Notes: generated by a model not told the origin, from the letters alone. 64,000 nt of DNA from Patescibacteria group bacterium (GCA_028868715.1 JAGWUB010000001.1:53480-117479); one strand, 5' to 3'; counted from the first letter of the stretch, positions 7,352-27,030 are shown. Program-made: numbers and translations.

Positions 7352-7352
7352 T

Positions 7353-9242
7353 TTAAATTATTTTAATAGTTCCACCAGTGTTGCCGGCCATGATGTAGTC
7401 GGCAACTTTGTTTTCTACTAAGTCTTCAATGGCGCGCTTGATGGGGCGAGCACCAAACTCCGAATCAAATCCAGCGCTAGCCACCTTGTCGATGAGAGCA
7501 TCGGTGATTTCTAAAGTAATTTTTTTATCTTCATAAAGACGTTCGGCAAATTCAGCAAGCAATAATTTAGTTATCTCTCTGGCCTGCCCCGCATCAAGTG
7601 GTTTGAAAAGCACAACCGCATTAAATCTATTTAAAAATTCTGGAGCAAAGATGCTGTTTTTTATCAAACTATCAACTAAAGCTTTCTTTTCAATATTTGG
7701 ATTAGCAATAATGTCTGCGCTTCCTGCATTGGAAGTAGCGATAATCAAGGCATCTTTGAAGCTCGCCTCTCTCCCAGAGCTACGCGTCAAGCGGCCTTCA
7801 TCTAAGACTTGCAACAGCAGATTGCGAATAAGCACATTAGACTTTTCAAGCTCATCAAAAAATACCAGCGAAAGTGGAGCCTCTTCTATGGCGCTGGTTA
7901 GCCTCTCGGTAAAAGATTCAATAGAAGTAGCCAGTGAAAATTCACTCATATCAAATCGAATCATGGCATTTTTCCTTCCAAAATAACTTTCGGCCAAAAT
8001 CTTGGCAGTATAAGTCTTTCCCACTCCAGTCGGACCCAAGAATAGAAAACTGCCAGCAGGCTTGCTGTGGTCTGCAATCCCCGTACGCAAGCGGACCAAG
8101 GCTTCCGTCACATCTTTGACTGCTTCATCTTGTCCGACAATTTTCCCCCGCATTGAAGCTTCGAGCTCAAGTAGCACCTTCTTTTCATCGGCGCCGATAG
8201 CTCCTATCGGGATGTTGGTTTTATCAGATACCACTTGCCTGACATCATCTATGGTGATCACCTTTCCCAATGTTTTCAGTTCTTCCAAAACCAAGATGGA
8301 CTTCGCAGGCTGAGGTTGATTGCCGATCAGGCGGTCGGTGAGTCGCACAATTTCTAAAATGGCATCGTCGGCAATGGAAATATTGTTTATCCGAGCATTT
8401 TCCTTTAGGATAGATATCGTGTCCTCATCACTAGTTTCTGCTAAGTCTATTTTGGTAAACTTTGAGAGAAATTCTGGATGATTTTTTAATACTTGATCGT
8501 AATTTGAAAAATCGGTGGTTATAATAATTCCCAAGTGAGGCATCGCGAGATAAGGCAAAAGTCGTTCATAAATATCTTCATAGCGATGAATATTTTCAAT
8601 TATGAGAATGATATTTCCGGCGGCCGCAGCTTCGTTTAAACATTTATCAAAGTCTGGCAAGGAAAGTCCTTCAGTAAAAAGTTCTACTACTCGATGGTGA
8701 TGAATGCCGGAGAATGACAAGCCGGATTGCCCTAGCCGTCCTAGGTATGATATCAAGGTAGATTTACCGATTCCAGTGTCCCCCACTAAAAGCACGTTGT
8801 GATTGGAATCTTTCAAGAGTCCCCGTTCGATCATCCGAAGGGCTTTGTCTTTACCGTAAACTGTTTGCGGTGCTAGGCCGACGACATCCCGACTATGTTT
8901 ATTTAAGGTATAAGTTTCGCCATACGAAAGTGAGGCGCCAAAGCTGGGAAGTCTTTCTAAATAGTCTAGGTTAATTTTTATAGGAACGAGTAAAAAGATT
9001 GGAAAGGTCAAAATAGCTAAAAGGGTGAAAACTGAACCGATAATTATCAAAATAATACGAGCAACAAAGCCTATAATTCGTGACAAAAAGAAGAAAACTA
9101 TTTTTTCAAAAATAGTAAAATCGTTTCCTCTCCCAGTGTCCATTTTCCAGGGCAAAAAGAGAGTCTTTAGCAAGAGCGGAATAGAAAAAGCGTTATACGC
9201 ATAGGTCACAAGGTTCTTCCACGATTGTAGTCCTGGGTGCAT
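7353..9242 (-). CDS. Two-domain Clp/Hsp100-type AAA+ ATPase (ClpA/ClpC-like). Two N-terminal transmembrane helices replace the usual N-domain.
   Basis: First AAA domain has Walker A LLVGDTGIGKSTL. Second AAA domain has FLFLGPTGVGKTYTAKILAE...ARPIKRAIEDLV. The N-terminus carries hydrophobic stretches IIGFVARIILIIIGSVFTLLAILTFPIFLLV. Confidence 0.8.
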   Translation of the reverse strand: MHPGLQSWKNLVTYAYNAFSIPLLLKTLFLPWKMDTGRGNDFTIFEKIVFFFLSRIIGFVARIILIIIGSVFTLLAILTFPIFLLVPIKINLDYLERLPSFGASLSYGETYTLNKHSRDVVGLAPQTVYGKDKALRMIERGLLKDSNHNVLLVGDTGIGKSTLISYLGRLGQSGLSFSGIHHHRVVELFTEGLSLPDFDKCLNEAAAAGNIILIIENIHRYEDIYERLLPYLAMPHLGIIITTDFSNYDQVLKNHPEFLSKFTKIDLAETSDEDTISILKENARINNISIADDAILEIVRLTDRLIGNQPQPAKSILVLEELKTLGKVITIDDVRQVVSDKTNIPIGAIGADEKKVLLELEASMRGKIVGQDEAVKDVTEALVRLRTGIADHSKPAGSFLFLGPTGVGKTYTAKILAESYFGRKNAMIRFDMSEFSLATSIESFTERLTSAIEEAPLSLVFFDELEKSNVLIRNLLLQVLDEGRLTRSSGREASFKDALIIATSNAGSADIIANPNIEKKALVDSLIKNSIFAPEFLNRFNAVVLFKPLDAGQAREITKLLLAEFAERLYEDKKITLEITDALIDKVASAGFDSEFGARPIKRAIEDLVENKVADYIMAGNTGGTIKII

Positions 9243-9264
9243 GTGTTTATTCTAGCATAAATGG

Positions 9265-9316
9265 ATCCCGTTAGAGATAGAGGGTCGCTACGAGCCCTCG
9301 CGATCTCTAACGGGAT
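9265..9316. repeat. Hairpin element, copy 1. Arms ATCCCGTTAGAGAT and ATCTCTAACGGGAT flank an inner GC-rich near-palindrome.
   Basis: ggATCCCGTTAGAGATagagggtcgctacgagccctcgcgATCTCTAACGGGATgg, located 23 nt upstream of the Clp ATPase start. The same arms occur at 26946..27030. Confidence 0.6.
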
Positions 9317-9514
9317 GGACAAAATATAAGTATTTTGTTATACTATATGTGTAACTTTACAAATTTATTTTAACTTGGTTCGCAAGAATATTCCATATAT
9401 TATGAAGCGTTTAAGGAAAAATTTTAAAACTTTTTACCGGGCAGACAGAAAAATTACTTTGTCAAACTAAGACCATAATTATAGTGGCTCATTCTTGTAG
9501 GCTAAAAAAAGCTT

Positions 9515-11047
9515 ATGAGTATAACATTAATAACGATTCTAATAAGCGCAGTGGCGCTTCTTTTAGGTGCAGGTATCGGATACTACCTACGCTTGATAAT
9601 AGCTTTAGGCAAGCGAAGGTCTATCGAAATAGACATCAAGCAAATGATGGTTGGCGCCAAGGAGGAGGCGCAAAGGATCACCGATGAAGCCAAGAAGGCC
9701 TCTGAAGCCAAGCTAGCGGAATTAAAAGAAGAAGAAAAGAAAAAGGAGCAAGAATTTAAAGAAACTGAAAAAAGACTTATCAAAAAAGATGAGTTTTTGG
9801 ATGCTCGGCAGACAGAAATAGATAAAGAGGTAGAAAACATCAAAACAAAAGTAGAGGAAATAAAAAATATCAAAGAGAAAGTAATAAAAATAGAAGGAGA
9901 AAAGAGAGCTGAACTAGAAAAAGTAGCTGGGCTCTCCGAGGAAGAGGCCAAAGAAGAACTCTTGAAGGAAGTTGAGAAGAAATATGAAGAGGATATTGTA
10001 GTCAGAATCCAAAAAATTGAAAATGTGAATGAGGAAAAATTGGAAAGAAGGGCAAAAGACATTTTGGCCACCTCAATACAACGACTCGCTAAAAGTACTG
10101 CCTCCGAATTGATGACTACCGTCGTATCCATCCCAAACAATGAAATTAAAGGGAAAATTATAGGTAAAGAAGGTAGAAATATCAGGGCTTTTGAAAGAGC
10201 CGCTGGGGTGGAGCTCATCGTGGATGATACTCCGGGCTCAATCGTCATCTCTTCCTTTGATCCTATCAGGAGGCAAGTCGCGCGTCTGGCTTTAGAAAAC
10301 CTAATATTAGACGGACGAATTCAACCAGCCAAAATAGAAGAACTAGTAGAAAAGGCTAAAGAAGAAATAAATAAAATAATCAAAGAAAAAGGCGAGCAAG
10401 CCGTATACGAATGCGGAATCTTCAATCTAGACCCACGCATCGTCGCTATTGTCGGCAGACTTTATTTCCGCACCAGTTACGGACAAAATGTTCTCCAGCA
10501 CTCTGTAGAAATGGCGCACATCGCTGGTATGATTGCCGAAGAATTGGGCGTGGATGTAGCTATAGCTAAAGCCGGAGCCTTAGTGCACGACATCGGAAAA
10601 GCGCTTGACCACGAAGTCCAAGGAACCCACGTAGACATAGGTATGCGTATCTTGCAAAAATTCGGTGCCGACGAGCGAATTATTACCTCGATGAAGAGTC
10701 ACCACGAGCAATATCCATATGAAACGATTGAGTCTGTCATCGTTCAGACAGCTGACGCAATTTCCGGAGGACGACCTGGAGCTCGCCGTGACTCAGTAGA
10801 AAATTACCTCAAGAGACTTCAAGAGCTTGAAGCCTTGGTAAACGCCTTTCCGGCGATTGAAAAGTCATACGCGCTACAGGCGGGACGAGAAATTCGTATA
10901 TTTGTTACTCCAGAAAAAATTACTGACGCCGAAGCCAAGCTAATGGCGCGAGATATTGCAATAAAAATAGAACAAGAACTCAAATATCCAGGCGAAATCA
11001 AAGTCACGATGATACGAGAGACTAGAATTATAGAATACGCGAGATAA
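9515..11047 (+). CDS. rny: Ribonuclease Y.
   Basis: N-terminal TM, a coiled-coil region, a KH domain (GKIIGKEGRNIRAFERAAGVELIVDD) and an HD domain (LVHDIGKALDHE...SHHEQYPYE). Length is 510 aa. Confidence 0.9.
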   Translation: MSITLITILISAVALLLGAGIGYYLRLIIALGKRRSIEIDIKQMMVGAKEEAQRITDEAKKASEAKLAELKEEEKKKEQEFKETEKRLIKKDEFLDARQTEIDKEVENIKTKVEEIKNIKEKVIKIEGEKRAELEKVAGLSEEEAKEELLKEVEKKYEEDIVVRIQKIENVNEEKLERRAKDILATSIQRLAKSTASELMTTVVSIPNNEIKGKIIGKEGRNIRAFERAAGVELIVDDTPGSIVISSFDPIRRQVARLALENLILDGRIQPAKIEELVEKAKEEINKIIKEKGEQAVYECGIFNLDPRIVAIVGRLYFRTSYGQNVLQHSVEMAHIAGMIAEELGVDVAIAKAGALVHDIGKALDHEVQGTHVDIGMRILQKFGADERIITSMKSHHEQYPYETIESVIVQTADAISGGRPGARRDSVENYLKRLQELEALVNAFPAIEKSYALQAGREIRIFVTPEKITDAEAKLMARDIAIKIEQELKYPGEIKVTMIRETRIIEYAR

Positions 11048-11200
11048 AATCAAACACTTGCCTTAAAAAACCCTTGATATATAATAAATGTAGGCTACAA
11101 ATGTAGTAATTTATAAGTAAAAGGCCACCGTTCGCTCCACCATAGTGGAGCAAGCACCGGGGCAGGGTCGAAAGATTTACAAAAATAACTTTAAAAACAT

Positions 11201-11473
11201 ATGAATAAACAAGCATTAGCTGATTTAGTACATGTAAAGCTTGGTGGTACAAAGGTACAAGCCGAGGAAGTTGTTGATGGATTGTTTGATGCCATCATCG
11301 CGACTTTGAAAAAAGGTGGTGAAGTTTCAATCGCTGGCTTCGGAATCTTTTCCGTAAAGCAAAGAGCAGCTCGTATGGCTCGTAACCCAAAAACTGGAGA
11401 ACAAGTCAAAGTAGCCGCAAAAAGAGTTCCAAAATTCCGACCTGCAAAAGGTTTGAAGGACACTGTTGCTTAA
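11201..11473 (+). CDS. hup: DNA-binding protein HU.
   Basis: MNKQALADLV...GFGIFSVKQRAARMARNPKTGEQVKVAAKRVPKFRPAKGLKD is the HU/IHF fold signature. Confidence 0.9.
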   Translation: MNKQALADLVHVKLGGTKVQAEEVVDGLFDAIIATLKKGGEVSIAGFGIFSVKQRAARMARNPKTGEQVKVAAKRVPKFRPAKGLKDTVA

Positions 11474-11506
11474 ATTTTATCTCGCGAGACAAAATATAGC
11501 ATAAAC

Positions 11507-11533
11507 AAAAAACACCCTTATCGGGTGTTTTTT
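11507..11533. terminator. Bidirectional intrinsic terminator between hup (+) and lexA (-).
   Basis: The aaaaaacaccc-ttatc-gggtgtttttt hairpin has A/T runs on both sides. Confidence 0.6.
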
Positions 11534-15685: not shown

Positions 15686-16171
15686 TTATTCAATTTTTAT
15701 CACTTTATAGTGGTGATTTTTGTTTGCATGGCAAAACTCCACTTCGTCACCGACCTCGGTGCCGAGAAGAGGCGCTACCAACGGTGCAGTATATGAGAAG
15801 GTGGGGATCTTCCCCATTTTTCTTTTTTCGAAAACAAGGAAACTACCGACCCGGAAAGCTCTTCCCCTCCCAGAGAACATCTCACGAACAGCCACAAGCC
15901 GTCCGATCTTTACGGTGCCATCGTTTGGCTCCGGATCTACGATGGTCGCCGAGTTTCGCAGGCGGATTAACTCCTTGGCCTTTTTGGCCCACATATTAAT
16001 GACCCGCTCTCCATCCATAAAGCCAGCATTCCCATATTCATCGCCACGTTCATCTTGAACGCTTTCTGCGACTTGAATCGCTGCTGTAAGCGCACGAGTG
16101 TTAGCCTCGTCAATTTCCCGCTCCAACGATTCAAGGCCGTCTTTTGTGAAATAAACTCTCATTTTCTCCAT
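15686..16171 (-). CDS. greA: Transcription elongation factor GreA.
   Basis: N-terminal coiled-coil followed by a C-terminal FKBP-like domain (...LLGTEVGDEVEF...YKVIKIE). Confidence 0.8.
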   Translation of the reverse strand: MEKMRVYFTKDGLESLEREIDEANTRALTAAIQVAESVQDERGDEYGNAGFMDGERVINMWAKKAKELIRLRNSATIVDPEPNDGTVKIGRLVAVREMFSGRGRAFRVGSFLVFEKRKMGKIPTFSYTAPLVAPLLGTEVGDEVEFCHANKNHHYKVIKIE

Positions 16172-16341
16172 CCCTCCAAGTTTTTTTATTTTTTAGAACA
16201 CAACTCCGTAATGAAGATAACATTTTTACGACATAAAGTCAAGTATCTGTCAACATGTTAAAATAGCCTCATTTATTGGTTAAAGTGATTGATATGGAGT
16301 TTGCTTGACTATAGGCATTACCTTGATACTATGAATAGTAC

Positions 16342-17004
16342 ATGGATCCTTCTAAGAAAGTATTAGTTTTGTTTTCTGGTGGTCGAGATTCTTCGTCAGT
16401 AGTTATTGAAATGGTACGTGCTGGATATTATGTGAAACTGTTTACTTATCAAGGTGGATTGCCAGAATTAGTTGGCCCACGTGGTGATTCAGCTCCCGAT
16501 ATTAGGCATATGGAATTAATGAAAGTTTTCCCAAAGAATATTGACGTGGAACGTATTATTACTGGGAATGCTTACTTATTAAGAAAATTAGCAATAGAAA
16601 AAACAAATAGTATGCATGTAGTGTATCCCATTGCCATTGCACTTGGTATACACGCAGGCGCTATTTTGTATTGTTTAGAAAATGGTATTCACGATATTGC
16701 ATGTGGATATTCTGGATATCAAGGAAAAGAAGACAGATATATTGAACAACGTGAAGACTTTTTCGATCGCATGAAAGTTTTCCTAAAAGATTATGATATT
16801 GAATATCATGCACCGATCATTAAGAAATCAAAAAATGAGGTAATGGATATATTAGAACGCTACGGAGTCAGCTCAAATTCACTTGAAAATAAAGCGATTT
16901 GGGGAGGTATTCCATTTGATATTGATAAAGCAGAGGAATATTGGGAAAAAGCGCTACCAGTGTTTAGGGAGTATATTGAGTATATGAGGCCTTCACATAA
17001 ATAA
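16342..17004 (+). CDS. PP-loop superfamily ATP pyrophosphatase (adenine-nucleotide alpha-hydrolase; QueC/ExsB-like without the zinc Cys cluster).
   Basis: SGGRDSS PP-loop motif (VLVLFSGGRDSSSVV). No C-terminal Cys cluster is present, so it is not a canonical QueC. Confidence 0.5.
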   Translation: MDPSKKVLVLFSGGRDSSSVVIEMVRAGYYVKLFTYQGGLPELVGPRGDSAPDIRHMELMKVFPKNIDVERIITGNAYLLRKLAIEKTNSMHVVYPIAIALGIHAGAILYCLENGIHDIACGYSGYQGKEDRYIEQREDFFDRMKVFLKDYDIEYHAPIIKKSKNEVMDILERYGVSSNSLENKAIWGGIPFDIDKAEEYWEKALPVFREYIEYMRPSHK

Positions 17005-17007
17005 AAT

Positions 17008-17565
17008 ATGAATTTATCTCCATATGTAAAGAAAGCATTATATTTTGCCGCTGAAAAGCATGATGGGCAATATCGTAAGGGTGGACATGTGCCATACATC
17101 GTACATCCTGTGCAGGTCGCATTTACTATATCTACATATACAAACAACGAAAATGTAATTGCCGCAGCACTCCTTCATGATGTCCTTGAGGATTGTGCTG
17201 ACGTATCCCTTGCTATACTTCAAAATGAATTTAATGATAGTACTGCTCAAATAGTTTACGAAGTAAGTCTTGTTGATAGTAAAAAATATAAAACCTGGAA
17301 AGAAAAGAAGAAAGCTTACTTAGAAAAAATAAAAAATGCGTCAAAAAACGCACTTATGATTGTTGCTGCTGATAAAATGAGCAATATGCATGGATATTTC
17401 TCAGCCTTAAGAGATAAGGGTGATTTAGTAGCCAAAGATTTTGGCGGAACAACTGATGAATATTTTTGGTATTATGTCGAAGTTGGCAAGGTACTTTTTT
17501 CAATACTTGGTGAACATCCTATTGTAAAAGACTACAATGATATATTAAAATTTTTTAGTAAATAA
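17008..17565 (+). CDS. HD-domain (p)ppGpp hydrolase-like protein (small alarmone hydrolase, Mesh1/SpoT-HD type).
   Basis: AAEKHDGQYRKGGHVPYIVHPVQVA...AAALLHDVLEDC matches the RelA/SpoT HD hydrolase core (HDGQ.R..G.PYI.HP..VA ... AALLHDV.ED). Confidence 0.7.
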   Translation: MNLSPYVKKALYFAAEKHDGQYRKGGHVPYIVHPVQVAFTISTYTNNENVIAAALLHDVLEDCADVSLAILQNEFNDSTAQIVYEVSLVDSKKYKTWKEKKKAYLEKIKNASKNALMIVAADKMSNMHGYFSALRDKGDLVAKDFGGTTDEYFWYYVEVGKVLFSILGEHPIVKDYNDILKFFSK

Positions 17566-17584
17566 ACTCTTACACTTTTTCTTT

Positions 17585-18088
17585 TTAAGAATTATATTTT
17601 CGATTATGATAACCTTCATGCAAGGTTTCATTTATTTCGTTGAAAGCTGTAGTGGTGATTTGTATTTCAAAAGGCATTTCATTTTTGTATGCAATAAATT
17701 GTAAAAGTTGTAACTTCTTACCTTCTTTAGATTCATCCGGACGTACCATTGGTTCTTTTATATAATCATGATCCAAATAGCCAGGGAAAGTTTGCCATAT
17801 TTTTTCAAGAACTTTATAAACATCGTCAACTGATTCTACTATAATACGTATACCATACACATCATCGATAGAAAAAATACTTTTTACGTTTTTTAACTGT
17901 ATTTTTTTCTGCAACGTTTCTGGGTCTTTTATACGGAAACTAACAACTTTATTTTTTACAGTTTTTTCTAAAAGTATTTTAATATCGTTCGATAGGTCTT
18001 TTATAGTACAACCTATACATTGTTCATACACAGAAACAGTCTCAGGTATTGTTTCATGTTTCTTTATTTTATTAAATGATTCTTTCAT
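17585..18088 (-). CDS. RelA/SpoT-family nucleotidyltransferase (small alarmone synthetase-like, 167 aa).
   Basis: Carries DDVYGIRIIV (the DxxGxRxx catalytic loop), EIQITTTAFNEINETLHEGYHNRKY (the ExQIRT...H..YK region, with Arg replaced by Thr), and a basic patch FRIKDPETLQKKIQLK. Confidence 0.6.
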   Translation of the reverse strand: MKESFNKIKKHETIPETVSVYEQCIGCTIKDLSNDIKILLEKTVKNKVVSFRIKDPETLQKKIQLKNVKSIFSIDDVYGIRIIVESVDDVYKVLEKIWQTFPGYLDHDYIKEPMVRPDESKEGKKLQLLQFIAYKNEMPFEIQITTTAFNEINETLHEGYHNRKYNS

Positions 18089-18243
18089 ATAATTATATTT
18101 AAGTTTATCAAAAAATTACAATAATAACTATATTCTAATTGACAAAGGTATGCTTTGCAGTATAATCGTTGTTATATAGCGTTTATTGTTGTATTCAAAA
18201 AATGGAAGTCCGAAAAGTGGTTTAATTCGTTTCGATAGAAACT

Positions 18244-19293
18244 ATGGAACAATCGCTAATTAAAAAGAATCCTCAATTTGATAACCATGAGCTAGTCTCA
18301 TTCTTTTTTGATAAAGAGACAGGTCTGCGTGGTATTATCGCCATACACTCGACTAAACTTGGCCCCGCAGTTGGGGGCACTAGATATTTTCCCTATAATT
18401 CGGATGAAGAAGCATTGGAAGATGTGCTGCGCCTTTCTCGCTCCATGTCATACAAGTGCATCTTGGCTGGAGTAAAATATGGAGGTGGAAAATGTGTGCT
18501 GATCGCTCCATCGCAAAATAAAATTAAAGCCAAAGAATATCTCGAGGCTTATGGCCGAATACTAAAAGAATATTCTACGAAATTTTTTACCGGCGAAGAT
18601 GTCGGCATGAGCCAAAACGACATAGAGATACTCGGGAAAATAACTCCAAATATTATCGGCACCAAGGCCAAAGCTGGGGACCCTTCCCCTTGGGCGGCGC
18701 TTTCCACTTACTATGCCATCCGCGGAGCGCTTAAATTTTTATACGGAGACACGTCGTTAAAAGGTAAAAAAATTATTATCAAGGGACTTGGAAAAGTTGG
18801 CATGGAGCTAGCTAGGCTCGCAAATGAAGAAGGAGCTATACTCCTCGTGTCTGATGTAGATAAAAAGCGTACTGATCAAGCGCTGAAATCTTTTAAGAAT
18901 GTATCCGTCATCGCCCCTTCTGAATTTTCTTCTCATGAGTGTGATATTTTTGCGCCTTGTGCTTTGGGTAAGGATATCACCGACTATATTGCCCAAAAAA
19001 TTGAAGTAAAAATTATCTGTGGAGCTGCCAACAATCAGCTCGTTTCCGAAAAAGAAGGCGTGACTCTCTTTAAACGGGGTGTCGTATATGTTCCAGACTA
19101 TGTAGCTAATGGCGGAGGACTAATAAATGTCGTCGCCGAACTTTCAAACGGTGGCTACAACAAAGAAAATGTTCTACAGAAATGTAAAAATATTGAGGAT
19201 GAAGTGGTCACCATCCTCAAGGAAAGCAAGGAAACAGATACCGCTCCGAGTGAAATTGCCGATAGAATTGCTAAACGTGCCCTAGAACAATAA
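18244..19293 (+). CDS. Leucine (Glu/Leu/Phe/Val-family) dehydrogenase.
   Basis: GGTRYFPY...GGGK matches the ELFV dehydrogenase signature, plus an NAD Rossmann motif GLGKVG. A near-consensus promoter TTGACA-16-TATAAT is at 18139-18168. Confidence 0.8.
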   Translation: MEQSLIKKNPQFDNHELVSFFFDKETGLRGIIAIHSTKLGPAVGGTRYFPYNSDEEALEDVLRLSRSMSYKCILAGVKYGGGKCVLIAPSQNKIKAKEYLEAYGRILKEYSTKFFTGEDVGMSQNDIEILGKITPNIIGTKAKAGDPSPWAALSTYYAIRGALKFLYGDTSLKGKKIIIKGLGKVGMELARLANEEGAILLVSDVDKKRTDQALKSFKNVSVIAPSEFSSHECDIFAPCALGKDITDYIAQKIEVKIICGAANNQLVSEKEGVTLFKRGVVYVPDYVANGGGLINVVAELSNGGYNKENVLQKCKNIEDEVVTILKESKETDTAPSEIADRIAKRALEQ

Positions 19294-19296
19294 TTT

Positions 19297-20811
19297 ATGT
19301 CCGGGAAAAGATATAAAATTAAGAATAAACATTTTATACATGAAATTGAAACCCGGAAATCTAGTTATTGGGAAAATATAAGAGATAAAAATAAACTCAA
19401 AATATTCAAAGACACGGTAGCTTCCGTGCCAGCCTACCGTTTGTTTTTAAAAAAACACTCCATTGATCCCAAAAAAATTCGCACGATAGCAGATCTAGCT
19501 CATGTGCCCGTTACAACTAAAGATTCCTATCTAAGATCTTTTTCTGTGGCTAACCTTTGTAAGAAAGGAACACTTATGCACCCCCTAGTTTTCACAGCAA
19601 CTTCTGGATCTACGGGCGAACCATACTATTTTCCTAGATTTGAAAAAATAGATAGAGAATACTCTATTTTAATTGAATACTATCTTTCCCAAAACAAAAT
19701 ATCACTGGAAGGGCCAACTCTAGTTGTCGTTTGTTTCGGTATGGGAATTTGGATTGGTGGAGTTATCACCTATCAGGCTTTCGAGGCGGCAAGTCGAGAA
19801 AGCGGATATCCAATATCAATTATCACTCCAGGAACAAACAAAGAAGAAGTTTTAAATTCTCTTGCAAAACTTGCACCAAATTTTTCACAAACTATTCTGA
19901 TTGGCTACCCACCCTTTATCAAAGACCTGATAGACGAGGCGGCAAGTAAAAAAATAAATCTTAGTAAGTTAAATATGCGTTTAATGTTTGCCGCCGAATC
20001 ATTCTCAGAAAAGTTTAGAGATTACTTGGGTAAAAAGGCAAAAATTGACAACATTTACCGTGACACATTAAATGTATATGGTAGTGCTGACATCGGTGCC
20101 ATGGCATGGGAAACAGGAGTATCAATTCTAATTAAACGGATACTTACTAAAGATAAAAAATTATATGCAGATTTTTTTCCATCGGTTTCACAAATGCCAA
20201 CAATGGCTCAATACAATCCACACTTTATAACCTTTGAGTCAGTCGATGGAAATATTATACTGTCAGCTGAAAATGCTCTGCCGCTAGTTAGATACGCTAT
20301 TGGAGATCATGGTGGAGCTATAAGTTTTAGAGAAGTAGAGAAAAAATTTAAGAAAAATGGTTATGATCTAAAAACACTTGCAAAAAAAGCTGGTATCACT
20401 TCAATCCCAGAATTACCATTCGTGTATATTTACGAGCGAAGCGATTTTTCAACAAAGTTTTATGGTGCAATTGTTTTTCCAGAATATATAAAGTCTGCAC
20501 TGGAACGAGATAAGGTTGAGAATTTAGTTACCGGAAAATTTACTATGTTCACTCGCCACGATAAAAAACATAACCAGTTTCTAGAAGTAAATGTTGAGCT
20601 CAAAAAAGGAATACATGCTGACAAAAATTTAAATAAACTAGTCCAGAATCTTGTCTTTCAAGAACTTATAGAGCGAAGTACTGAGTGTAGAAATAACGCC
20701 CAGCTTTTAGGCAAAAAAATGCTACCAAAAATTACCTTTTGGTCATATGAAGATTCTCTATATTTCAAAACTGGTATCAAGCAAAAGTGGGTGAAAAAAA
20801 CACCAAAATAG
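19297..20811 (+). CDS. PaaK/CapK/F390-synthetase-family adenylate-forming enzyme.
   Basis: VPVTTKDSYLRSF corresponds to the PaaK LPxTxKxDLR motif, and TSGSTGEPYYFP is the AMP-binding motif. Length is 504 aa. Confidence 0.65.
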   Translation: MSGKRYKIKNKHFIHEIETRKSSYWENIRDKNKLKIFKDTVASVPAYRLFLKKHSIDPKKIRTIADLAHVPVTTKDSYLRSFSVANLCKKGTLMHPLVFTATSGSTGEPYYFPRFEKIDREYSILIEYYLSQNKISLEGPTLVVVCFGMGIWIGGVITYQAFEAASRESGYPISIITPGTNKEEVLNSLAKLAPNFSQTILIGYPPFIKDLIDEAASKKINLSKLNMRLMFAAESFSEKFRDYLGKKAKIDNIYRDTLNVYGSADIGAMAWETGVSILIKRILTKDKKLYADFFPSVSQMPTMAQYNPHFITFESVDGNIILSAENALPLVRYAIGDHGGAISFREVEKKFKKNGYDLKTLAKKAGITSIPELPFVYIYERSDFSTKFYGAIVFPEYIKSALERDKVENLVTGKFTMFTRHDKKHNQFLEVNVELKKGIHADKNLNKLVQNLVFQELIERSTECRNNAQLLGKKMLPKITFWSYEDSLYFKTGIKQKWVKKTPK

Positions 20812-20854
20812 CTGTTCCTTTGTCGTTGTAAATAAGTTATACTTATAATAGTTT

Positions 20855-22039
20855 ATGAAAGAAACTGAACAATATTTACAAGAATTTTCGGATAAAAAAA
20901 TCGGGGTTAAACCTATTTTTTTTAATCTAAAAATTGCTCAAGAAAAAGAGTCACTTAGGAAACTTTTTGATTCAAGTACAATCATCCGGGTTGCTGATGA
21001 TTATCAGGAAGAATTACTAGAACTTTTTGGTATAAATCATCCGACTGAAGTCTATCAACCAGGGTTCAAAGAATCATTTGAAAAATATTACGCAGATTTA
21101 CAAAAGGAAACTCCCCTCTCCGACCACGGAGTTTGGGTTTATTTTCCATGGAATGGAGTTTTGTCACATATTTTGGAAGAAAAAGATTTTCAAATTGTCC
21201 GAACTGCCAGAAATAGAAATCTGATTGACCAAAGAGAACAAGAAAAATTTCACGACGCTACAGTAGGCATCGCTGGGCTTTCCGTCGGCTCTAGTGTGGC
21301 CTTTGCGCTTACCTTGCAAGGGGGTCCAAAGCATATTAAGCTCGCTGATATGGATCGTCTAGCACTTACTAATACAAATAGAGTGCTTATGGGAGTAGAT
21401 CATTTAGGTTCACTGAAAGTGGAGATGGCGGCACATAAAATATATGAGATAAATCCGTATGCAGAAATTGAACTTTTCCCCGAGGGATTAAACACTGAAA
21501 ATATAAGCCTTTTTTGTGAAAATTTGGATTTAGTCATTGATGAAATAGACAACCTAGCCATAAAATACCTCTTACGCACTGAAGCAAAAAAAAGGAAAAT
21601 TGCAGTGGTAATGGGTGCCGATAATGGGGACAATGCTGTCGTTGACGTGGAGCGTTATGATCTTGACCCAGATTTGCCTTTTTTCCATGGCCGACTGGGG
21701 GAAACTTCATACGATGAGCTTTCAAAGCTTGATAAGTTTGGCATAGGCAAAACTATTACCAAGCATATTGGAGCAGAAAATGTGACCATCCGAACTCAAG
21801 AATCACTATTGGAAATGGGGAAAACCATTGTCTCTTGGCCACAGCTCGGTGGGGCAGCACTCATCAATGGAGCTGCTGTCGCCTACTGTGTACGAAAAAT
21901 TTTAAACGGTCAGTCAGTAGAGGGCAACCGCGCACTCATTTCATTGGATGAAAAACTAATTCCGGAGTATACTAGTGATGAGGAAATAAAGAAGCGAAAT
22001 AATGCTTCTACCGCATTTAAAAAAATCTTTGGATTATAA
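20855..22039 (+). CDS. ThiF/MoeB/E1-like adenylyltransferase with a ~130-aa N-terminal extension.
   Basis: E1 Rossmann VGIAGLSVGSSVAFALTL...KLADMDRLALTNTNR. No rhodanese domain and no C-terminal Cys pair are evident. Confidence 0.7.
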   Translation: MKETEQYLQEFSDKKIGVKPIFFNLKIAQEKESLRKLFDSSTIIRVADDYQEELLELFGINHPTEVYQPGFKESFEKYYADLQKETPLSDHGVWVYFPWNGVLSHILEEKDFQIVRTARNRNLIDQREQEKFHDATVGIAGLSVGSSVAFALTLQGGPKHIKLADMDRLALTNTNRVLMGVDHLGSLKVEMAAHKIYEINPYAEIELFPEGLNTENISLFCENLDLVIDEIDNLAIKYLLRTEAKKRKIAVVMGADNGDNAVVDVERYDLDPDLPFFHGRLGETSYDELSKLDKFGIGKTITKHIGAENVTIRTQESLLEMGKTIVSWPQLGGAALINGAAVAYCVRKILNGQSVEGNRALISLDEKLIPEYTSDEEIKKRNNASTAFKKIFGL

Positions 22040-22040
22040 A

Positions 22041-23111
22041 ATGGAACAAGACATAAAACAGATTATACAAGATGCAATCTATGCGCCTTCTGGTGAAAAT
22101 TGCCAACCATGGAGCTTTAGGATCTCAGGAGCAACGATCAATCTTTTTAATTTACCTGAAAGAGATCAGTCGCCGTACAATCGAGGACAATATGGTTCTT
22201 ATGTAGCGCACGGGGCTGTATTGGAAAATATTAAAATATCAGCTGAGCAATTGGGATATAGAGTAGATATTAAACTTTTTCCTGAACCTAGTAACAAAAA
22301 TCACATAGCTTTGATAAGCTTAGAAAAACTATCTACTTCTATCGAAAAACCAATTCTTTATGGAGCAATAGCTAAAAGAGTAACAAATAGAAAACCTTAC
22401 GAGGATACGTTGCTCTCCCCCTTGGAATTAGACGAGCTTGTAAAAAGTATTTCAGATAATTCAGTTAAAATTTTAATTACGCAAAAGAATTCTGATAAAA
22501 AAACTTTGGCCGAAATCGGCAGTTTAAACGAAAGCATAATGATGAGTAATGAATTTTTACACGACTTTTTTTTCTCGCATGTAACTTGGACGAAAGAAAT
22601 GGACGAACAAAAAAAGATTGGTTTTTTTGTAGATACTCTAGAGCTACCACTCCCTGCCAAGAAACTCTTTAAAATAGCTAAGAATTGGAAAATAGTTAAA
22701 TTTTTAAATAAATTTGGATTTTCAAAGGAAGTAGGTAAACAAAATGCAAAAACTTATACTTCATCGTCGGGTTTTGGAATACTTTCTATAAAAGATACAT
22801 CGCCAGAGAGTTTTATAAATGCTGGCATGGCCCTTGAGCGGATTTGGCTCACGGCAACTAATCTTGGATTAAATTTCCAACCGGTCTCTGGATTATTATT
22901 TTTAGTTTATGCAGTCAAATTAGATGGAACAGCACAATTTTCAAAAAATCAAACAGACCTTATAGATAAAGGTTATGAGACAATTAAAAAAACTTTTCAG
23001 GTTGATTCTAGCGAAAATGTAGTGTTTATGTTCAGGATTGGTCATGGAAATATAAAACCCACAGCCAGATCGTCGCGATTCAATGTTGAAGACTTTATTC
23101 AGGTAGCTTAA
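22041..23111 (+). CDS. Nitroreductase-superfamily (FMN-dependent, SagB/McbC-like) oxidoreductase. Its start is coupled 1 nt after the ThiF-like stop.
   Basis: IIQDAIYAPSGENCQPWSF is the nitroreductase N-terminal signature. A second half-domain follows at ~200-356 aa. The ATG at 22041 directly follows the TAA at 22037-22039. Confidence 0.55.
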   Translation: MEQDIKQIIQDAIYAPSGENCQPWSFRISGATINLFNLPERDQSPYNRGQYGSYVAHGAVLENIKISAEQLGYRVDIKLFPEPSNKNHIALISLEKLSTSIEKPILYGAIAKRVTNRKPYEDTLLSPLELDELVKSISDNSVKILITQKNSDKKTLAEIGSLNESIMMSNEFLHDFFFSHVTWTKEMDEQKKIGFFVDTLELPLPAKKLFKIAKNWKIVKFLNKFGFSKEVGKQNAKTYTSSSGFGILSIKDTSPESFINAGMALERIWLTATNLGLNFQPVSGLLFLVYAVKLDGTAQFSKNQTDLIDKGYETIKKTFQVDSSENVVFMFRIGHGNIKPTARSSRFNVEDFIQVA

Positions 23112-23113
23112 TT

Positions 23114-24748
23114 ATGATGACAAATTTATTTTTGAATAATGCAAATTATAATATATTAATTGTCGGAATTGCAGTAGGTTCTATCTTGCTCTTAGGTTTT
23201 ACCATTTATTTTAATAACCGAGAAAGTGTTACCAATAGAGCGTTTTTTTATTACTGTTTAGCAGTTGCTTTGTGGGGTATCTCAAATTTTTTTGAATACC
23301 AATTTACAGAAAATACTATTGCTCTCTGGGCACTTCGTACCCATTTATTTATTTCTGTGTGGTATAGTTTAACTTTTTTCCGTCTTTGTTATGTATTCCC
23401 AAATAATCAGTTCAAGTTCCCGAAGTGGTATAAATATTATGTAATTCCATTTATAGTCATCACTTCCTTGGTTACCTTAACTCCCTTAGTTTTTATTAGA
23501 CTTGCTCACTTAGCAACAGTAGGACAAGTCACTCGTGCAGAAATAGGTCCAGGTATGGCCCTTTTTGGATTGGCGGCTTTTGGATTACTTATTGCTGGGC
23601 TTATTGTTTTGTCTGTTCGGGCTATGAAGGTAAAAGGCATAGAGAGAAAACAATTGTGGCTCGTTTTTTGGGGGATGCTTTTAACTGCCTGTTTAACTCT
23701 TGTTTTTAATTTGGTTCTTCCTGTTGGTTTTCAGAATGTAACCTATATACCTTTTGCTGCACTTTTTGTTTTACCATTTGTTTTCCTTGTTTCTTACACC
23801 ATATACAGACACAAGCTTTTTGATATTAAAATTATGGCTATTGCCTTCGTTGCTTTTGTACTTACAATATTTAGTCTTTCTAATGTTATTTATGCCACAG
23901 GTCCTAGCCAAATCGTATTAAATACTTCCTTCTTTTTACTTGTATTGTTGGGAAGTATTATTCTAATACAAAGCATATTGAGAGAAATAAAACAGCGTGA
24001 GCGACTTGAGATTCTAACTGGTCAATTAGAGGAAGCAAATGAAAATCTGACCGAACTTATTAAGCAAAGGGAAAGCTTGGTGCATCTTATTACCCACAAG
24101 GTGAAAGGATCATTTACGCGTTCCAAATACATTTTTGCTGGTCTACTCGATGGAACCTTTGGGGAAATATCTGCAGATGTAAAGAAATACGCAGAGCAGG
24201 GATTGGAATCAGACAACGCGGGGATAAATACAGTGGATTTGGTGTTAAATGTCGCCAATATGCAGAAAGGCGTAGTGAAATATGACATGAAAAAGATGGA
24301 TTTCAAAGATATTGTATTGAGTAGTCTATCTGAAAAAGAAGTAGCTATAACAAAAAAGGGTTTGCAGTTGGAAAAAGATATCAAAGACGGAGATTTCTCT
24401 ATTATGGGAGATACTTTTTGGCTCAAGGAAGCGGTAAATAATTTAATTGAAAATTCAATAAAATATACCAAGCAAGGAAAAATTATCGTGGGGCTTGAAA
24501 AAAATAATGACAAGATAAAACTTTCCGTCAAAGATACTGGCATAGGAATTACCGAAGAAGACAAAAAGAATCTCTTTACCGAAGGTGGACGAGGTAAAGA
24601 TTCCGTCAAGGTAAATGTGGATAGCACTGGCTATGGTCTCTACACAGTCAAACTAATCGCCGAAGCCCACAAGGGGCGTGTCTGGGCCGAATCCGCAGGT
24701 CCTGATAAAGGCTCCGCCTTCTACCTAGAACTCCCTGCTACTCAATAA
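23114..24748 (+). CDS. Sensor histidine kinase with a 7-TM N-terminal sensor.
   Basis: Roughly 7 predicted TM helices lie in the first 290 aa. A coiled-coil follows, then a dimerisation His region (LITHKVKGSF) and a HATPase_c domain (N-box NLIENSIKYT, then DTGIGI and GYGLY). No adjacent response regulator is present. Confidence 0.75.
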   Translation: MMTNLFLNNANYNILIVGIAVGSILLLGFTIYFNNRESVTNRAFFYYCLAVALWGISNFFEYQFTENTIALWALRTHLFISVWYSLTFFRLCYVFPNNQFKFPKWYKYYVIPFIVITSLVTLTPLVFIRLAHLATVGQVTRAEIGPGMALFGLAAFGLLIAGLIVLSVRAMKVKGIERKQLWLVFWGMLLTACLTLVFNLVLPVGFQNVTYIPFAALFVLPFVFLVSYTIYRHKLFDIKIMAIAFVAFVLTIFSLSNVIYATGPSQIVLNTSFFLLVLLGSIILIQSILREIKQRERLEILTGQLEEANENLTELIKQRESLVHLITHKVKGSFTRSKYIFAGLLDGTFGEISADVKKYAEQGLESDNAGINTVDLVLNVANMQKGVVKYDMKKMDFKDIVLSSLSEKEVAITKKGLQLEKDIKDGDFSIMGDTFWLKEAVNNLIENSIKYTKQGKIIVGLEKNNDKIKLSVKDTGIGITEEDKKNLFTEGGRGKDSVKVNVDSTGYGLYTVKLIAEAHKGRVWAESAGPDKGSAFYLELPATQ

Positions 24749-25321
24749 TTACTTTTCCTGAACAATAAAGTGAAATACGTGCCAATGCTTTTGTTCACCG
24801 GAAGCATCTTTACCATCTTTCTCTTCTTCGATAAATTCTAAAATTTTTAAACCAGACAATAAATCGAGTGCTTGTTTTTTTGTATGAAACGCAAGATTAG
24901 ATTTTGAATTATTCCAGCTATCTCTAGCACCAAAAAACTGCCCTACAAAAATACCTTTTGGCGCAAGTGAACCTGTGATTTTTTTTATAAAAGATTTAAA
25001 ACCCCTCTTGCCGTAAAATGGCAATGCGTACTGAGCATTTATTAAATTAAAAGTGTTTTTAGGAAAATTATATTTATGAAAGGATATATTTTTAAACTTA
25101 AACTTTTTATTTTTTAATTTTTTTGCAAATATTTTTACTTCGGGTGAACTGTCAGTCGCCAAGACATGCTTGAAACCTTTTTTAACTAGAAACTTTGATT
25201 CAATCAAGGTCCCAGCCCCTAGATCTAAAGCATTTTCTTTATTTTTACAAAAAGAAACCGCTAGAACCAATAGTTCTCTTGGCTTTCTTCCCATATGTTT
25301 TTTAAAATATTCTTCCCACAT
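24749..25321 (-). CDS. Class I SAM-dependent methyltransferase.
   Basis: Motif I ALDLGAGTLIES. Length is 190 aa. Confidence 0.6.
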   Translation of the reverse strand: MWEEYFKKHMGRKPRELLVLAVSFCKNKENALDLGAGTLIESKFLVKKGFKHVLATDSSPEVKIFAKKLKNKKFKFKNISFHKYNFPKNTFNLINAQYALPFYGKRGFKSFIKKITGSLAPKGIFVGQFFGARDSWNNSKSNLAFHTKKQALDLLSGLKILEFIEEEKDGKDASGEQKHWHVFHFIVQEK

Positions 25322-25409
25322 AATATAAACTATACACTAAAAAGAGAAAGGGCCGAAGTAGTTGCGTCAGCACTTTCTCCGACCCTATTGTTGTTGGTAT
25401 CTTTTGGGC

Positions 25410-25865
25410 TTACTCATCATCACCACCACCATCATCGCTACTACACATGTTGTCACATGTTGCTGCTTTGCCGACGAAACTTTCGCCGAATTCTGCGACA
25501 AATAGAGCATGGGTTTTTGCAACTTGGGGTTGCAGGTCGTCGTCCTCAAGAGCGGGTTTGTGATACAAGACTTTTCCGAAGATCTGTGTTGTATCTTGTT
25601 CATATTTTCTCATGTCGAGAATGTGAGCATGCCAAAGCTCATCAATTTGACCACTCGGCACAATGCCCAAGCCTGGATACTTGAGTGATATGAGAAGAAA
25701 TCTACGATACCACTTGTCAGCTTCGGTGGCCTCGTCGTTAGTCCAACCCATACCTCTTGGTGCCGGTTGCTGCAACCGACCAAGTACGTTATCCAGATTC
25801 ATGTTTTTAATGGCTTGAATGCCTTTCTGAACACGACCCGAATTATTTAATACATCTTTATCCAT
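25410..25865 (-). CDS. Hypothetical protein with a DUF1399-like ELWHAHIL motif and an acidic Cys-containing tail. It is compositionally GC-rich relative to its neighbours.
   Basis: QIDELWHAHILDMRKYEQD resembles the D(L/I)xWHTHxL core of DUF1399/GRDP-type proteins. Local GC is visibly higher than flanking DNA, judged by eye. Confidence 0.4.
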   Translation of the reverse strand: MDKDVLNNSGRVQKGIQAIKNMNLDNVLGRLQQPAPRGMGWTNDEATEADKWYRRFLLISLKYPGLGIVPSGQIDELWHAHILDMRKYEQDTTQIFGKVLYHKPALEDDDLQPQVAKTHALFVAEFGESFVGKAATCDNMCSSDDGGGDDE

Positions 25866-26071
25866 AAAGAACTCCTTTTTTCGTGCCGAATTCGCCTCGA
25901 CTATTTTGCGACTTATCCTTTTGAGATAAGTGTTTTAGGCCCTTTTTAAGGGGCACAAAACACTTGTCTCACTGGCAACCACGTTCATAGAAAAAACTAG
26001 TTACAGCGCTAGTGTAACCCGTTATTATATTAAGTCAATAGTGGAAAATTATGTATAAAAATAAGTAAATT

Positions 26072-26947
26072 CTATTTCTTAATCTGGCTAGATGCTAGGC
26101 GGAGGATTATTTCGTGGACGGCATTTTCACTATTGGTTATAACCACAGAATTATCATCGGCAAAGACATACATCATCACTATTTTGTTGTCAGTATCATA
26201 TAGAATGCGCGCATTTTTGTTTTCTACAATGCCATCTTGAAATTCTTTAGTTAAGAGATATTTTGTATCGGGTGAAAAATTGATTCCAAAAAATCCATGC
26301 AAGTCCACAAACAGCTTTGGCTCCCAAGCATGCATAGTGTCAAAAATATCAGGGATAGAACGCATTTTTAATAACATAAAAAAACTCTTGCCTGCGGAGA
26401 TGGAAGGGTTGGTTTGGTCAGCACTATTAAATGCACCCATAAAGAAATTGTCGTCTATAAAGTTATTGGTACCAGGAGTAAAATTGCCCTCTATAATGGT
26501 AATAAATTGCCTCAAGCCCACTGGACCCTTATTCAGGGTTGGGTACATTCCCTCTATTCCCCCTGGTTTTACAGTAGTGTTGTTAACTGCGTTGAAAAAC
26601 TTGGCTGAGATTGCATCTTTTTTTAAATCAGCCAGCTCCAAGAGAGAATCTTTGTCGGTAAAAATTATAGGTATAAATTGTTTTTGTACTGGAACACTTG
26701 GAGCACTTCGCTGAAAAATAAAGAAGAATAAAGTTCCTAAAGAGATAAAAGTGAGAAGCATCCCCAAAAACATAAAGAATTTATTCTTTTTTGACTGCGG
26801 AGATAGCTCTCTTTTTTCTTTTTCATGCTCCTCCTCGCCGTGAATTATTTTTTTTATTAATCCACCTTTGTCCTCCTCCAAAACATGAGCCATGTCTTCG
26901 GCATAAGTTTGCACTATCTTATTTTGGGGTATGTTGTTATTTTCCAT
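26072..26947 (-). CDS. Single-pass membrane protein with a large extracytoplasmic domain, hypothetical. The start is set at the second Met to exclude the palindromic element.
   Basis: TM FFMFLGMLLTFISLGTLFFFIF. No recognised motifs. Confidence 0.45.
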   Translation of the reverse strand: MENNNIPQNKIVQTYAEDMAHVLEEDKGGLIKKIIHGEEEHEKEKRELSPQSKKNKFFMFLGMLLTFISLGTLFFFIFQRSAPSVPVQKQFIPIIFTDKDSLLELADLKKDAISAKFFNAVNNTTVKPGGIEGMYPTLNKGPVGLRQFITIIEGNFTPGTNNFIDDNFFMGAFNSADQTNPSISAGKSFFMLLKMRSIPDIFDTMHAWEPKLFVDLHGFFGINFSPDTKYLLTKEFQDGIVENKNARILYDTDNKIVMMYVFADDNSVVITNSENAVHEIILRLASSQIKK

Positions 26948-27030
26948 CCCGTTAGAGATAGGATGCGCTAGCGCATCCATAGTTATTTATATTTATAATT
27001 AATTTTAACATGATTGATCTCTAACGGGAT
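26946..27030. repeat. Hairpin element, copy 2. It has the same 14-bp arms as copy 1, plus a perfect inner palindrome GGATGCGCTAGCGCATCC.
   Basis: ATCCCGTTAGAGATaGGATGCGCTAGCGCATCC...(37 nt AT-rich)...gATCTCTAACGGGATcc. It fills the pnp-stop to next-gene-start gap. Confidence 0.6.

Follow-up and report, generated by a model that had tools for sequence, protein, structure and literature searches.

A Patescibacteria operon with a predicted split oxazolone synthetase, a PaaK-fold adenylating enzyme and a linked sensor kinase

The 64,000-nucleotide segment of a Patescibacteria group bacterium analysed here (GCA_028868715.1 JAGWUB010000001.1:53480-117479; hereafter the window) contains a five-gene operon at 18244–24748, entirely on the plus strand, that encodes in order an amino-acid dehydrogenase, a PaaK-fold enzyme, a ThiF-like protein, a nitroreductase-superfamily flavin oxidase (FDO) and a seven-transmembrane (7TM) histidine kinase. 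To judge from their sequences, the fused Rv1355c/TrzS oxazolone synthetase is represented here by two separate genes, those for the ThiF-like protein and the FDO, and the right reference for the pair is the ThiF-plus-FDO oxazolone synthetase group (OxzB, TyzB/TyzC, and TrzS, which is Rv1355c; PMC10404671, PMC12856293). We propose, with a probability of about 0.55, that the operon makes an oxazolone or 2,3-dehydro-amino-acid small molecule through ATP-dependent N-acylation, cyclisation and desaturation. The known kind here is the oxazolone synthetase; what is new is the entry enzyme and the attached sensor kinase, in a form that is widespread in Patescibacteria. A sequence-only reading of this DNA had described a unit of three consecutive plus-strand genes, all of which are present (19297–20811, 20855–22039 and 22002/22041–23111), but it drew the unit too short, as the dehydrogenase and histidine kinase genes also belong to it.

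The ThiF-like protein (20855–22039) matches the Rv1355c family model NF005901 at 311.6 bits, with residues 14–378 aligned to positions 7–347 of 722, whereas its scores on ThiF and MoeB models are 62–69 bits (cut-offs 152–449). The FDO (22041–23111) matches the same model at 187.9 bits (positions 372–717), PRK14851 at 208 bits and the Acg family at 145 bits. Joining the two proteins in silico gives an NF005901 score of 503.5 bits, which passes the curated cut-off of 476, in a single stretch (14–746 against 7–717 of 722). Unlike the NF005901 polypeptides, in which the domains are fused, the window has two genes, arranged as in TyzB/TyzC. A tblastn search of plasmids returned fused Rv1355c-family proteins of Rhodococcus, Mycobacterium and Mycolicibacterium with 27–29% identity over ~85% of the joined sequence. 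The Pfam ThiF match begins at residue 119, so that the ~120–130 aa N-terminal extension (put at 130 aa in the sequence-only reading) is real, and this extension belongs to the Rv1355c family. The nitroreductase-fold class that had been assigned to the FDO also holds, with Pfam matches at both ends of the protein (residues 11–48 and 268–348). The nearest PDB sequence to the ThiF-like protein is TcdA, the ct6A oxazolone-forming enzyme, which closes an oxazolone ring on t6A (PMC12596934), and the sole PDB sequence match of the FDO is Acg (2ymv). These matches point to an FDO of the Acg/FDO type and not the NfsB type, and we predict that the ThiF-like protein corresponds to the N-terminal half of TrzS/Rv1355c and works as an ATP-dependent cyclase.

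Related loci were collected by scanning GTDB species genomes for relatives of the PaaK-like protein; the best 80 loci were examined, of which 39 have at least 6 kb on both sides (the full loci), and the neighbourhood statistics given below are based on stop-to-stop open reading frames (ORFs) and single-sequence phmmer. The window pair is collinear with the actinobacterial fusions and has the motifs RNRN, GLSVG, LADxD, ExxD(S/N), APSGxNxQPW and RxTNR in common with them, all at least 90% conserved among 72 ThiF-like and 61 FDO orthologues from the related loci. The conserved positions in the ThiF-like orthologues are RxxRN, GLSVG (141–145), D165xD167, N173/N175/R176, K188 and E230xD232, and the adenylation residues among them (GLSVG, D165xD167, R176, K188 and E230xD232) are also found in the actinobacterial fusions; D232 is, from its motif position, the likely counterpart of TrzS D217. 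APSxxNxQPW and R113xxxR117 of the FDO are conserved in the 61 orthologues and in the TrzS family. Residues R540 and Q651 of the TrzS FDO domain have been tested experimentally and shown to matter; of the candidate positions, a conserved QPVS Gln is present in the window FDO, and the arginines of the actinobacterial ‘DRIRF’ and ‘ELRW’ motifs are replaced.

We note that the cassette ThiF-like proteins of loci L004–L083 fall into two score classes relative to the window protein (~460–740 and ~170–300 bits), as do the FDOs (~180–620 and ~35–100 bits). The classes combine variously, with a partial correlation with swapped gene order, and this suggests two or more product subtypes. On a plasmid of Streptomyces sp. 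NBC_01426 (L085, 5923–7697) lone ThiF homologues with the N-terminal extension adjoin a GNAT gene and lack an FDO; homologues of this type have 33% identity to the window ThiF-like protein, above the identity between the window protein and TrzS. Such loci, in Streptomyces and Kitasatospora, may represent a saturated-oxazolone or otherwise different variant.

Four characterised systems provide the comparison. Rv1355c (TrzS), together with the acyltransferase TrzA, makes N-acyl tryptazolones, its ThiF domain carrying out ATP-dependent cyclisation of N-acyl-Trp and its FDO domain then O2-dependent desaturation (PMC12856293). The split TyzB/TyzC with TyzA make tyrazolones from N-acyl-Tyr (PMC10404671), OxzAB of Pseudoalteromonas rubra is the founding ‘oxazolone synthetase’ (bioRxiv 10.1101/2020.06.11.147165), and NasY–ThiF–nitroreductase clusters make N-acyl-dehydrotyrosines in three phyla (stieleriacines, thalassotalic/kyonggic acids; PMC12479983). 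In all known systems the first step belongs to an N-acyl amino acid synthase, which draws on acyl-coenzyme A (acyl-CoA) or acyl-acyl carrier protein. TrzAS (Rv1356c-Rv1355c; M. tuberculosis, M. smegmatis and R. jostii) has a ThiF cyclase with the N-terminal extension and an Acg-like FDO that are collinear with the window pair, but its domains are fused and accompanied by TrzA, whereas the window has split genes, nothing of the TrzA type, a PaaK-fold enzyme with a dehydrogenase (an aminotransferase in some relatives), and a 7TM kinase. TyzACB of M. tuberculosis (Rv2336-Rv2338c) resembles the window in having separate adjacent ThiF (TyzB) and FDO (TyzC) genes, but TyzA, an acyltransferase with a fold like that of acyl-homoserine lactone synthases, supplies the N-acyl-Tyr, and the system lacks a ligase, a dehydrogenase and a kinase. 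In a comparison with NCBIfam models, the Rv1355c model gives the window ThiF-like protein a far higher score than any stand-alone ThiF model does. In the OxzAB and NasY clusters the ThiF and nitroreductase-superfamily pair is likewise tied to N-acyl aromatic amino acids, and gives oxazolones or N-acyl-2,3-dehydro-amino acids; an OxzA/NasY synthase is always present, however, and the phyla reported are Pseudomonadota, Actinomycetota and Planctomycetota, not Patescibacteria. There is no TrzA/OxzA-type N-acyltransferase among the annotated neighbours or the recurrent neighbour families of the 80 loci, and phmmer searches of the window and related loci with an unverified TrzA-like candidate and GNAT queries, which have single-sequence sensitivity only, found none. 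A literature search turned up no paper in which oxazolone genes are connected with PaaK-like enzymes, with Patescibacteria or with histidine kinases.

The enzyme that stands in the place of the acyltransferase, the 504-aa PaaK-like protein (19297–20811), has no Pfam match, scores weakly on PaaK profiles (40 bits; cut-offs 646–700), and matches PDB sequences by phmmer at E 1e-5. Its AlphaFold (AF2) model (pLDDT 88) superposes on PaaK1 (2y27) with TM-scores of 0.69/0.81 and E 2e-22, and the Foldseek neighbours are PaaK1, BT_0428, NatL2, AjiA1, ClxA and 2-hydroxyisobutyryl-CoA ligase (E 1e-15 to 1e-17 for NatL2/AjiA1/ClxA; ~1e-10 for GH3); sequence identity to the NatL2/AjiA1/ClxA and GH3 enzymes is 12–17%. 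ANL adenylation motifs are invariant in the family: TSGSTGxP (102–109), YGxAD (261–265), GD337 and GxK495. In a full-library profile search the number of cluster representatives was 778 at E<=1e-30 and rose to no more than 3793 at E<=1e-3, which argues for a distinct family and not an ordinary PaaK. The model and motifs together indicate a PaaK-fold adenylate-forming enzyme of the ANL superfamily, in a family of its own in Patescibacteria; the PaaK/CapK-type adenylating class named in the sequence-only reading is thus borne out by the superposition, although the PaaK profiles barely register it. We rejected an identity as PaaK phenylacetate–CoA ligase on the low profile score and because there are no paa genes near the gene; the two have only the fold and the ANL motifs in common. 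We propose that it is an N-acyl-amino-acid-forming ligase. PaaK-fold and ANL enzymes (benzoxazole ligases; GH3 amido synthetases) provide precedent for a CoA-free coupling of an acyl-adenylate with an O or N nucleophile, and NatL2, AjiA1 and ClxA, from benzoxazole pathways, form their bonds in this way. The benzoxazole ligases and the GH3 acyl-acid amido synthetases have the fold of the window enzyme, but their substrates and pathway contexts are different, and it is by analogy that we infer CoA-independence for the window enzyme.

The dehydrogenase (18244–19293) has Pfam ELFV_dehydrog_N and ELFV_dehydrog domains and is an NAD(P) amino-acid dehydrogenase of the ELFV family. Its top NCBIfam match is the Trp dehydrogenase ScyB (295 bits, under the cut-off), and the PDB matches are leucine dehydrogenase (LeuDH; 6acf, 266 bits) and tryptophan dehydrogenase (TrpDH; 5b37, 248 bits). 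The enzyme had been taken for a Leu-type dehydrogenase, but A113 and V291 of LeuDH 6acf align with G117 and L293, TrpDH 5b37 has the same Gly/Leu, and of the 42 cassette-linked orthologues all have G117 and 41 have L293; the catalytic K71, K83 and D119 are invariant. The Gly/Leu pair (G124/L307 in phenylalanine dehydrogenase) is the rule for aromatic-type enzymes in the mutagenesis literature, and the specificity pocket is accordingly predicted to be of the Phe/Trp type and not the Leu type. All natural oxazolones known so far derive from Tyr, Phe or Trp (PMC12856293).

The dehydrogenase gene is found in 23 of the 39 full loci. In one clade (L088–L092) its position is occupied, as a non-orthologous replacement, by a HisC-like aminotransferase (177–208 bits, cut-off 276), and the swap indicates that the pathway needs interconversion of an amino acid and a 2-oxo acid, but not in which direction. 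The aminotransferase in these loci is preceded by a conserved 161–162-aa protein with multiple transmembrane segments and no family match (e.g. L088 2780–4323). We also note that a tryptophanyl-tRNA synthetase (TrpRS) gene lies next to the cassette, on one side or the other, in 16 loci, among them 12 of the 80 genome loci and the kinase-centred loci (L005, L016, L022, L025, L026, L031, L049, L054, L057, L062, L065, L079, L083 and L088–L092). This adjacency attracts attention because TrzS uses tryptophan derivatives and the dehydrogenase pocket is TrpDH-like, but we did not retain a functional link, the adjacency being most likely conserved synteny in the order DnaK–DnaJ–cassette–TrpRS–class II aminoacyl-tRNA synthetase–ScpAB.

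The cassette as a whole is kept across Patescibacteria. PaaK-like relatives are present in at least 423 species-representative genomes, and the best 80 loci are titled Patescibacteria or plain ‘bacterium’, apart from one titled Gammaproteobacteria; the titles include Paceibacterota, Parcubacteria, Lipton-, Harrison-, Wolfe-, Magasanik- and Roizmanbacteria, Microgenomates and ‘Saccharibacteria’. Nearly all of the 80 loci carry cassette genes, and the remark in the sequence-only reading that such a cluster is unexpected in a reduced genome was therefore misleading. A ThiF gene is present in 39/39 full loci, an FDO and a kinase gene in 34/39 each, and all three in 33/39. The commonest gene orders are dehydrogenase–PaaK–ThiF–FDO–kinase (23 loci) and the same without the dehydrogenase (14 loci), and permuted orders still keep the cassette genes together. 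Several predicted proteins are fusions: dehydrogenase–PaaK (847 aa; fusions of this kind are P0141 and P0219), PaaK–ThiF (863 aa), ThiF–PaaK (880 aa) and dehydrogenase–PaaK–ThiF (1242 aa). The last is an uninterrupted ORF under genetic code 11 in two assemblies (L093 6001–9729 and L094 819–4547), with the FDO upstream and an alpha/beta-hydrolase followed by a 7TM kinase downstream; the hydrolase could open an oxazolone ring or act in acyl transfer. In L004, the closest relative (its ligase is 81% identical), a 5-kb block (6746–11507) encoding a TrmB-type regulator, a dihydroorotate dehydrogenase-like/4Fe-4S protein, a guanylate-kinase-like protein and others separates the PaaK-like and ThiF genes. 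TrmB-type regulators lie inside or beside the cassette in seven loci (also L003 10733–11569 and L029 20020–20802).

The kinase (23114–24748) has Pfam HisKA_7TM (residues 22–238) and HATPase_c (433–543) domains, at least seven transmembrane helices and no sizeable extracytoplasmic domain; H328, N447, DxGxG (474–478) and GxG (506–508) are conserved in 55 sequences. Its gene lies immediately 3’ of a cassette gene in 50 of 56 loci, and a search with the sensor domain gave nine protein matches, with all four contigs that were looked up carrying the same cassette. Conserved synteny, the fusions and these kinase-centred look-ups together argue that the genes form one functional unit and that their grouping is not due to chance. 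Stand-alone receiver genes (one to three copies) are found near the cassette in 35/80 loci, and just upstream on the same strand in 15/69; they encode CheY-like proteins. No ligand of a HisKA_7TM domain is reported in the literature. The operon kinase may be a receptor for the pathway product, or it might merely control the operon.

A kinase whose sensor is wholly membrane-embedded, encoded beside the synthesis genes of a small, labile, amphipathic molecule, is also a feature of the autoinducer synthase and receptor-kinase pairs CqsA-CqsS, LuxM-LuxN and AgrBD-AgrC; the resemblance is a lead, and these synthases and sensors have no homology to those of the window. It has been remarked in the oxazolone papers that these labile molecules resemble acyl-homoserine lactones and that trzAS adjoins cyclic di-GMP genes. 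The kinase linkage is the strongest genomic hint so far of a signalling role for oxazolones, although only a hint. A tentative extension, which we consider rather improbable as it stands, is that the cassette is a self-contained chemical signalling module, with a labile oxazolone or dehydro-amino-acid signal synthesised from ATP and amino acids and needing no acyl-CoA, the 7TM kinase as its receptor, and the stand-alone receivers as the output. If true, it would be the first candidate cell–cell or symbiont–host autoinducer system in ultra-small episymbionts, and would give oxazolones, whose function is undefined even in M. tuberculosis, a physiological role.

In the pathway that we propose, the dehydrogenase (or, in other lineages, the HisC-like aminotransferase) would convert between an L-amino acid that is bulky and probably aromatic and the corresponding 2-oxo acid. 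The PaaK-fold enzyme would then adenylate a carboxylic acid and couple it to the amino group of the amino acid to give an N-acyl-amino acid, so taking over from the acyl-CoA-dependent N-acyltransferase of the known systems; this step is perhaps CoA-free, which would suit organisms poor in acyl-CoA metabolism. The ThiF-like enzyme would adenylate the alpha-carboxylate, with the amide oxygen closing the 5(4H)-oxazolone ring, and the FDO would desaturate the C-alpha–C-beta bond, so that the end product would be an oxazolone or a ring-opened N-acyl-dehydro-amino acid. The co-transcribed 7TM kinase would couple the pathway to two-component signalling, possibly as a receptor for the product. Gene order and the order of domains in the fusions fit both this sequence of steps and the cyclisation-then-desaturation order of TrzS. 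The substrates, the direction of the dehydrogenase, the CoA-independence of the ligase, the product and the kinase ligand are predicted in this scheme from homology and context.

Several points weigh against this scheme. The FDOs characterised so far depend on O2, and many Patescibacteria are probably anaerobes. The dehydrogenase gene is not present in 16/39 full loci, identity to the characterised TrzS-family proteins is 27–29%, and the window FDO has Ser, Met and Thr in place of the arginines of the actinobacterial FDO motifs ‘DRIRF’ and ‘ELRW’, which indicates that its substrate pocket differs from the actinobacterial one. The PaaK-like enzyme might be no more than a CoA ligase, and its sequence does not reveal a substrate. 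The receivers of such cassettes elsewhere have no counterpart here, as neither phmmer nor a hidden Markov model built from 56 cassette-linked receivers finds a receiver gene in the 64-kb window at E<=1. In Planctomycetes and others the same gene pair leads to N-acyl-dehydrotyrosines with no oxazolone seen (PMC12479983), and the end product is thus uncertain. Finally, the Patescibacteria members are known from their sequences alone, so that the chemistry is inferred.

Some of these points fit a pathway in which the same enzymes carry out other chemistry, on a different heterocycle or activated acid (dipeptide- or 2-oxoacyl-derived, or cofactor-like), with the kinase only in a regulatory role. 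The low identity to TrzS and the altered FDO pocket are what such a pathway would show, as are a first-step enzyme of a different class and the two ThiF and FDO score classes within Patescibacteria; but the collinearity with the Rv1355c family is full-length and above the curated cut-off, and all characterised ThiF-plus-FDO pairs cyclise and desaturate N-acyl-amino acids (PMC10404671, PMC12856293, bioRxiv 10.1101/2020.06.11.147165), and we regard other chemistry as possible but doubtful. It is less probable again, and on the whole unlikely, that the locus serves amino-acid salvage or catabolism, the dehydrogenase or aminotransferase working with a PaaK-type aryl- or branched-acid CoA ligase to interconvert scavenged organic acids and amino acids, and the ThiF–FDO pair being only loosely related to it. 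The closest solved structures to the ligase are indeed PaaK1 and BT_0428 (the latter carries a putative acyl-CoA ligase annotation), and the dehydrogenase or aminotransferase gene, where present, is always immediately ahead of the ligase gene; against this, there is no 2-oxoacid:ferredoxin oxidoreductase in the window neighbourhood or among recurrent neighbour families, and the ThiF gene, which none of the full loci lacks, is fused to the ligase in several proteins.

The pairing of an E1-like protein with a nitroreductase-superfamily FMN enzyme is also that of thiazole/oxazole-modified microcin (TOMM) systems (SagBCD/McbBCD), and the sequence-only reading took their C and B components as its analogy. 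This was the wrong reference: neither SagB, SagC/Ocin_ThiF nor YcaO models match at E<=0.01, and, unlike TOMM loci with their YcaO and precursor peptide, the window has an FDO of the monomeric Acg type. A wider form of this idea is that the operon modifies a peptide or protein in the manner of ribosomally synthesised and post-translationally modified peptides (RiPPs), the ThiF enzyme adenylating a C-terminus, with an oxazolone or azoline then formed and oxidised by the FDO. Peptides are the substrates of most ThiF-like enzymes in secondary metabolism (PMC12596934), and a peptide C-terminal residue is chemically equivalent to an N-acyl-amino acid. However, as that reading had itself observed of YcaO and precursor peptides, there is no YcaO neighbour and no candidate small ORF: none that is conserved or rich in Cys/Ser/Thr lies between 14 and 28 kb of the window, where the gaps between operon genes are 1–43 nt, nor is there a recurrent YcaO-like or RiPP-maturation family among the 80 loci (ORFs of at least 80 aa were clustered, shorter precursor ORFs were not). 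The best family match, moreover, is to a small-molecule enzyme, TrzS. We consider TOMM/RiPP identity ruled out by the lack of SagB/SagC/YcaO matches and of precursor-like small ORFs, and peptide or protein modification in the wider sense quite improbable. Least probable of all, and hardly to be entertained, is a chance cluster of housekeeping genes: one for a MoeB/ThiF enzyme that activates a sulfur carrier, one for a generic nitroreductase and one for phenylacetate catabolism. The source annotations (‘phenylacetate--CoA ligase family protein’ and ‘ThiF’) would suggest this, but the ThiF/MoeB scores are far below both their cut-offs and the Rv1355c family score, the FDO is not of the NfsB type, there is no ThiS/MoaD-sized (ubiquitin-like) ORF in the operon, and the weak PaaK score, the conserved synteny and the fusions contradict chance. 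The earlier preference for an atypical small-molecule pathway over a coincidence of housekeeping genes is in this respect upheld. A defence system was considered and rejected, PADLOC giving generic E1 and HATPase matches only.

The discovery of oxazolone synthetases dates from 2021 and their characterisation in M. tuberculosis from 2023–2025; their biological role is still undefined. If the oxazolone-type pathway is correct, the locus extends the ThiF-plus-FDO pair to Patescibacteria, a group with almost no biosynthetic capacity, where it is conserved in hundreds of species, and it reveals a different pathway entry, in which an ATP-dependent PaaK-fold ligase and an enzyme for amino-acid/2-oxo-acid interconversion replace the acyl-CoA acyltransferase. 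Through its linkage to a sensor kinase, the pathway offers a direct test of the signalling role that has long been suggested for oxazolones, and the natural dehydrogenase–ligase–cyclase fusions are ready-made constructs for biochemistry.

The five genes are tightly spaced, with 3 nt between the dehydrogenase and PaaK-like genes, 43 nt between the PaaK-like and ThiF genes, 1 nt between the ThiF and FDO genes, and 2 nt between the FDO gene and the kinase gene that ends the operon. A sigma-70-like promoter on the plus strand (TTGACA, 16 nt, TATAAT; 18139–18166), located 78 nt 5’ of the dehydrogenase gene, is the sole 12/12 consensus match within 16000–26000, and there are no plus-strand terminator-like sites at any junction of the five genes. 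The 43-nt gap contains a second promoter-like site (10/12; TTGTCG, 18 nt, TATAAT; 20820–20849), from which the ThiF, FDO and kinase genes could be expressed apart from the upstream genes. The FDO start is the ATG at 22041, 1 nt past the ThiF stop codon (TAA, 22037–22039); an M-E/D-x-D start following the ThiF stop is kept in five relatives, whereas the upstream ATG at 22002 is not. The tight junction on which translational coupling had been suggested is therefore real.

A SAM-dependent methyltransferase gene on the minus strand (24749–25321; Pfam Methyltransf_11/25) is convergent with the operon and abuts it. Homologues lie beside the cassette in L001/L002, L024 and L080, but in only 2/39 full loci, and the Stieleria ThiF–nitroreductase clusters likewise include a methyltransferase (PMC12479983); this is weak evidence for an accessory role in the cassette, which the enzyme may have, and coincidence is possible instead. 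The operon is otherwise surrounded by housekeeping genes (ClpB-like, RNase Y, LexA-like, YifB, MetK, PNPase, CCA-adding enzyme and UvrD). A block that separates MetK from the operon (15686–18088) contains a GreA-like gene (minus strand), a gene for a QueC-like PP-loop ATPase (16342–17004) and two further genes, which encode a 185-aa HD_4 SpoT-hydrolase-like protein (17008–17565) and a 167-aa RelA_SpoT synthetase-like protein (17585–18088, minus strand; PADLOC PDC-S33, 38 bits). Neither the closest relative, L004, nor any of the 80 related loci has this block, which resembles an insertion specific to the lineage and might be a toxSAS-like or small-alarmone synthetase/hydrolase module. Three further ORFs of the window, at 39093–41684 (863 aa), 26072–26980 (minus strand) and 25410–25865 (minus strand), have no Pfam or NCBIfam match; the last, of 151 aa, shows weak similarity to the UCP032817-like gene found after the kinase gene of L001/L002 and L080.

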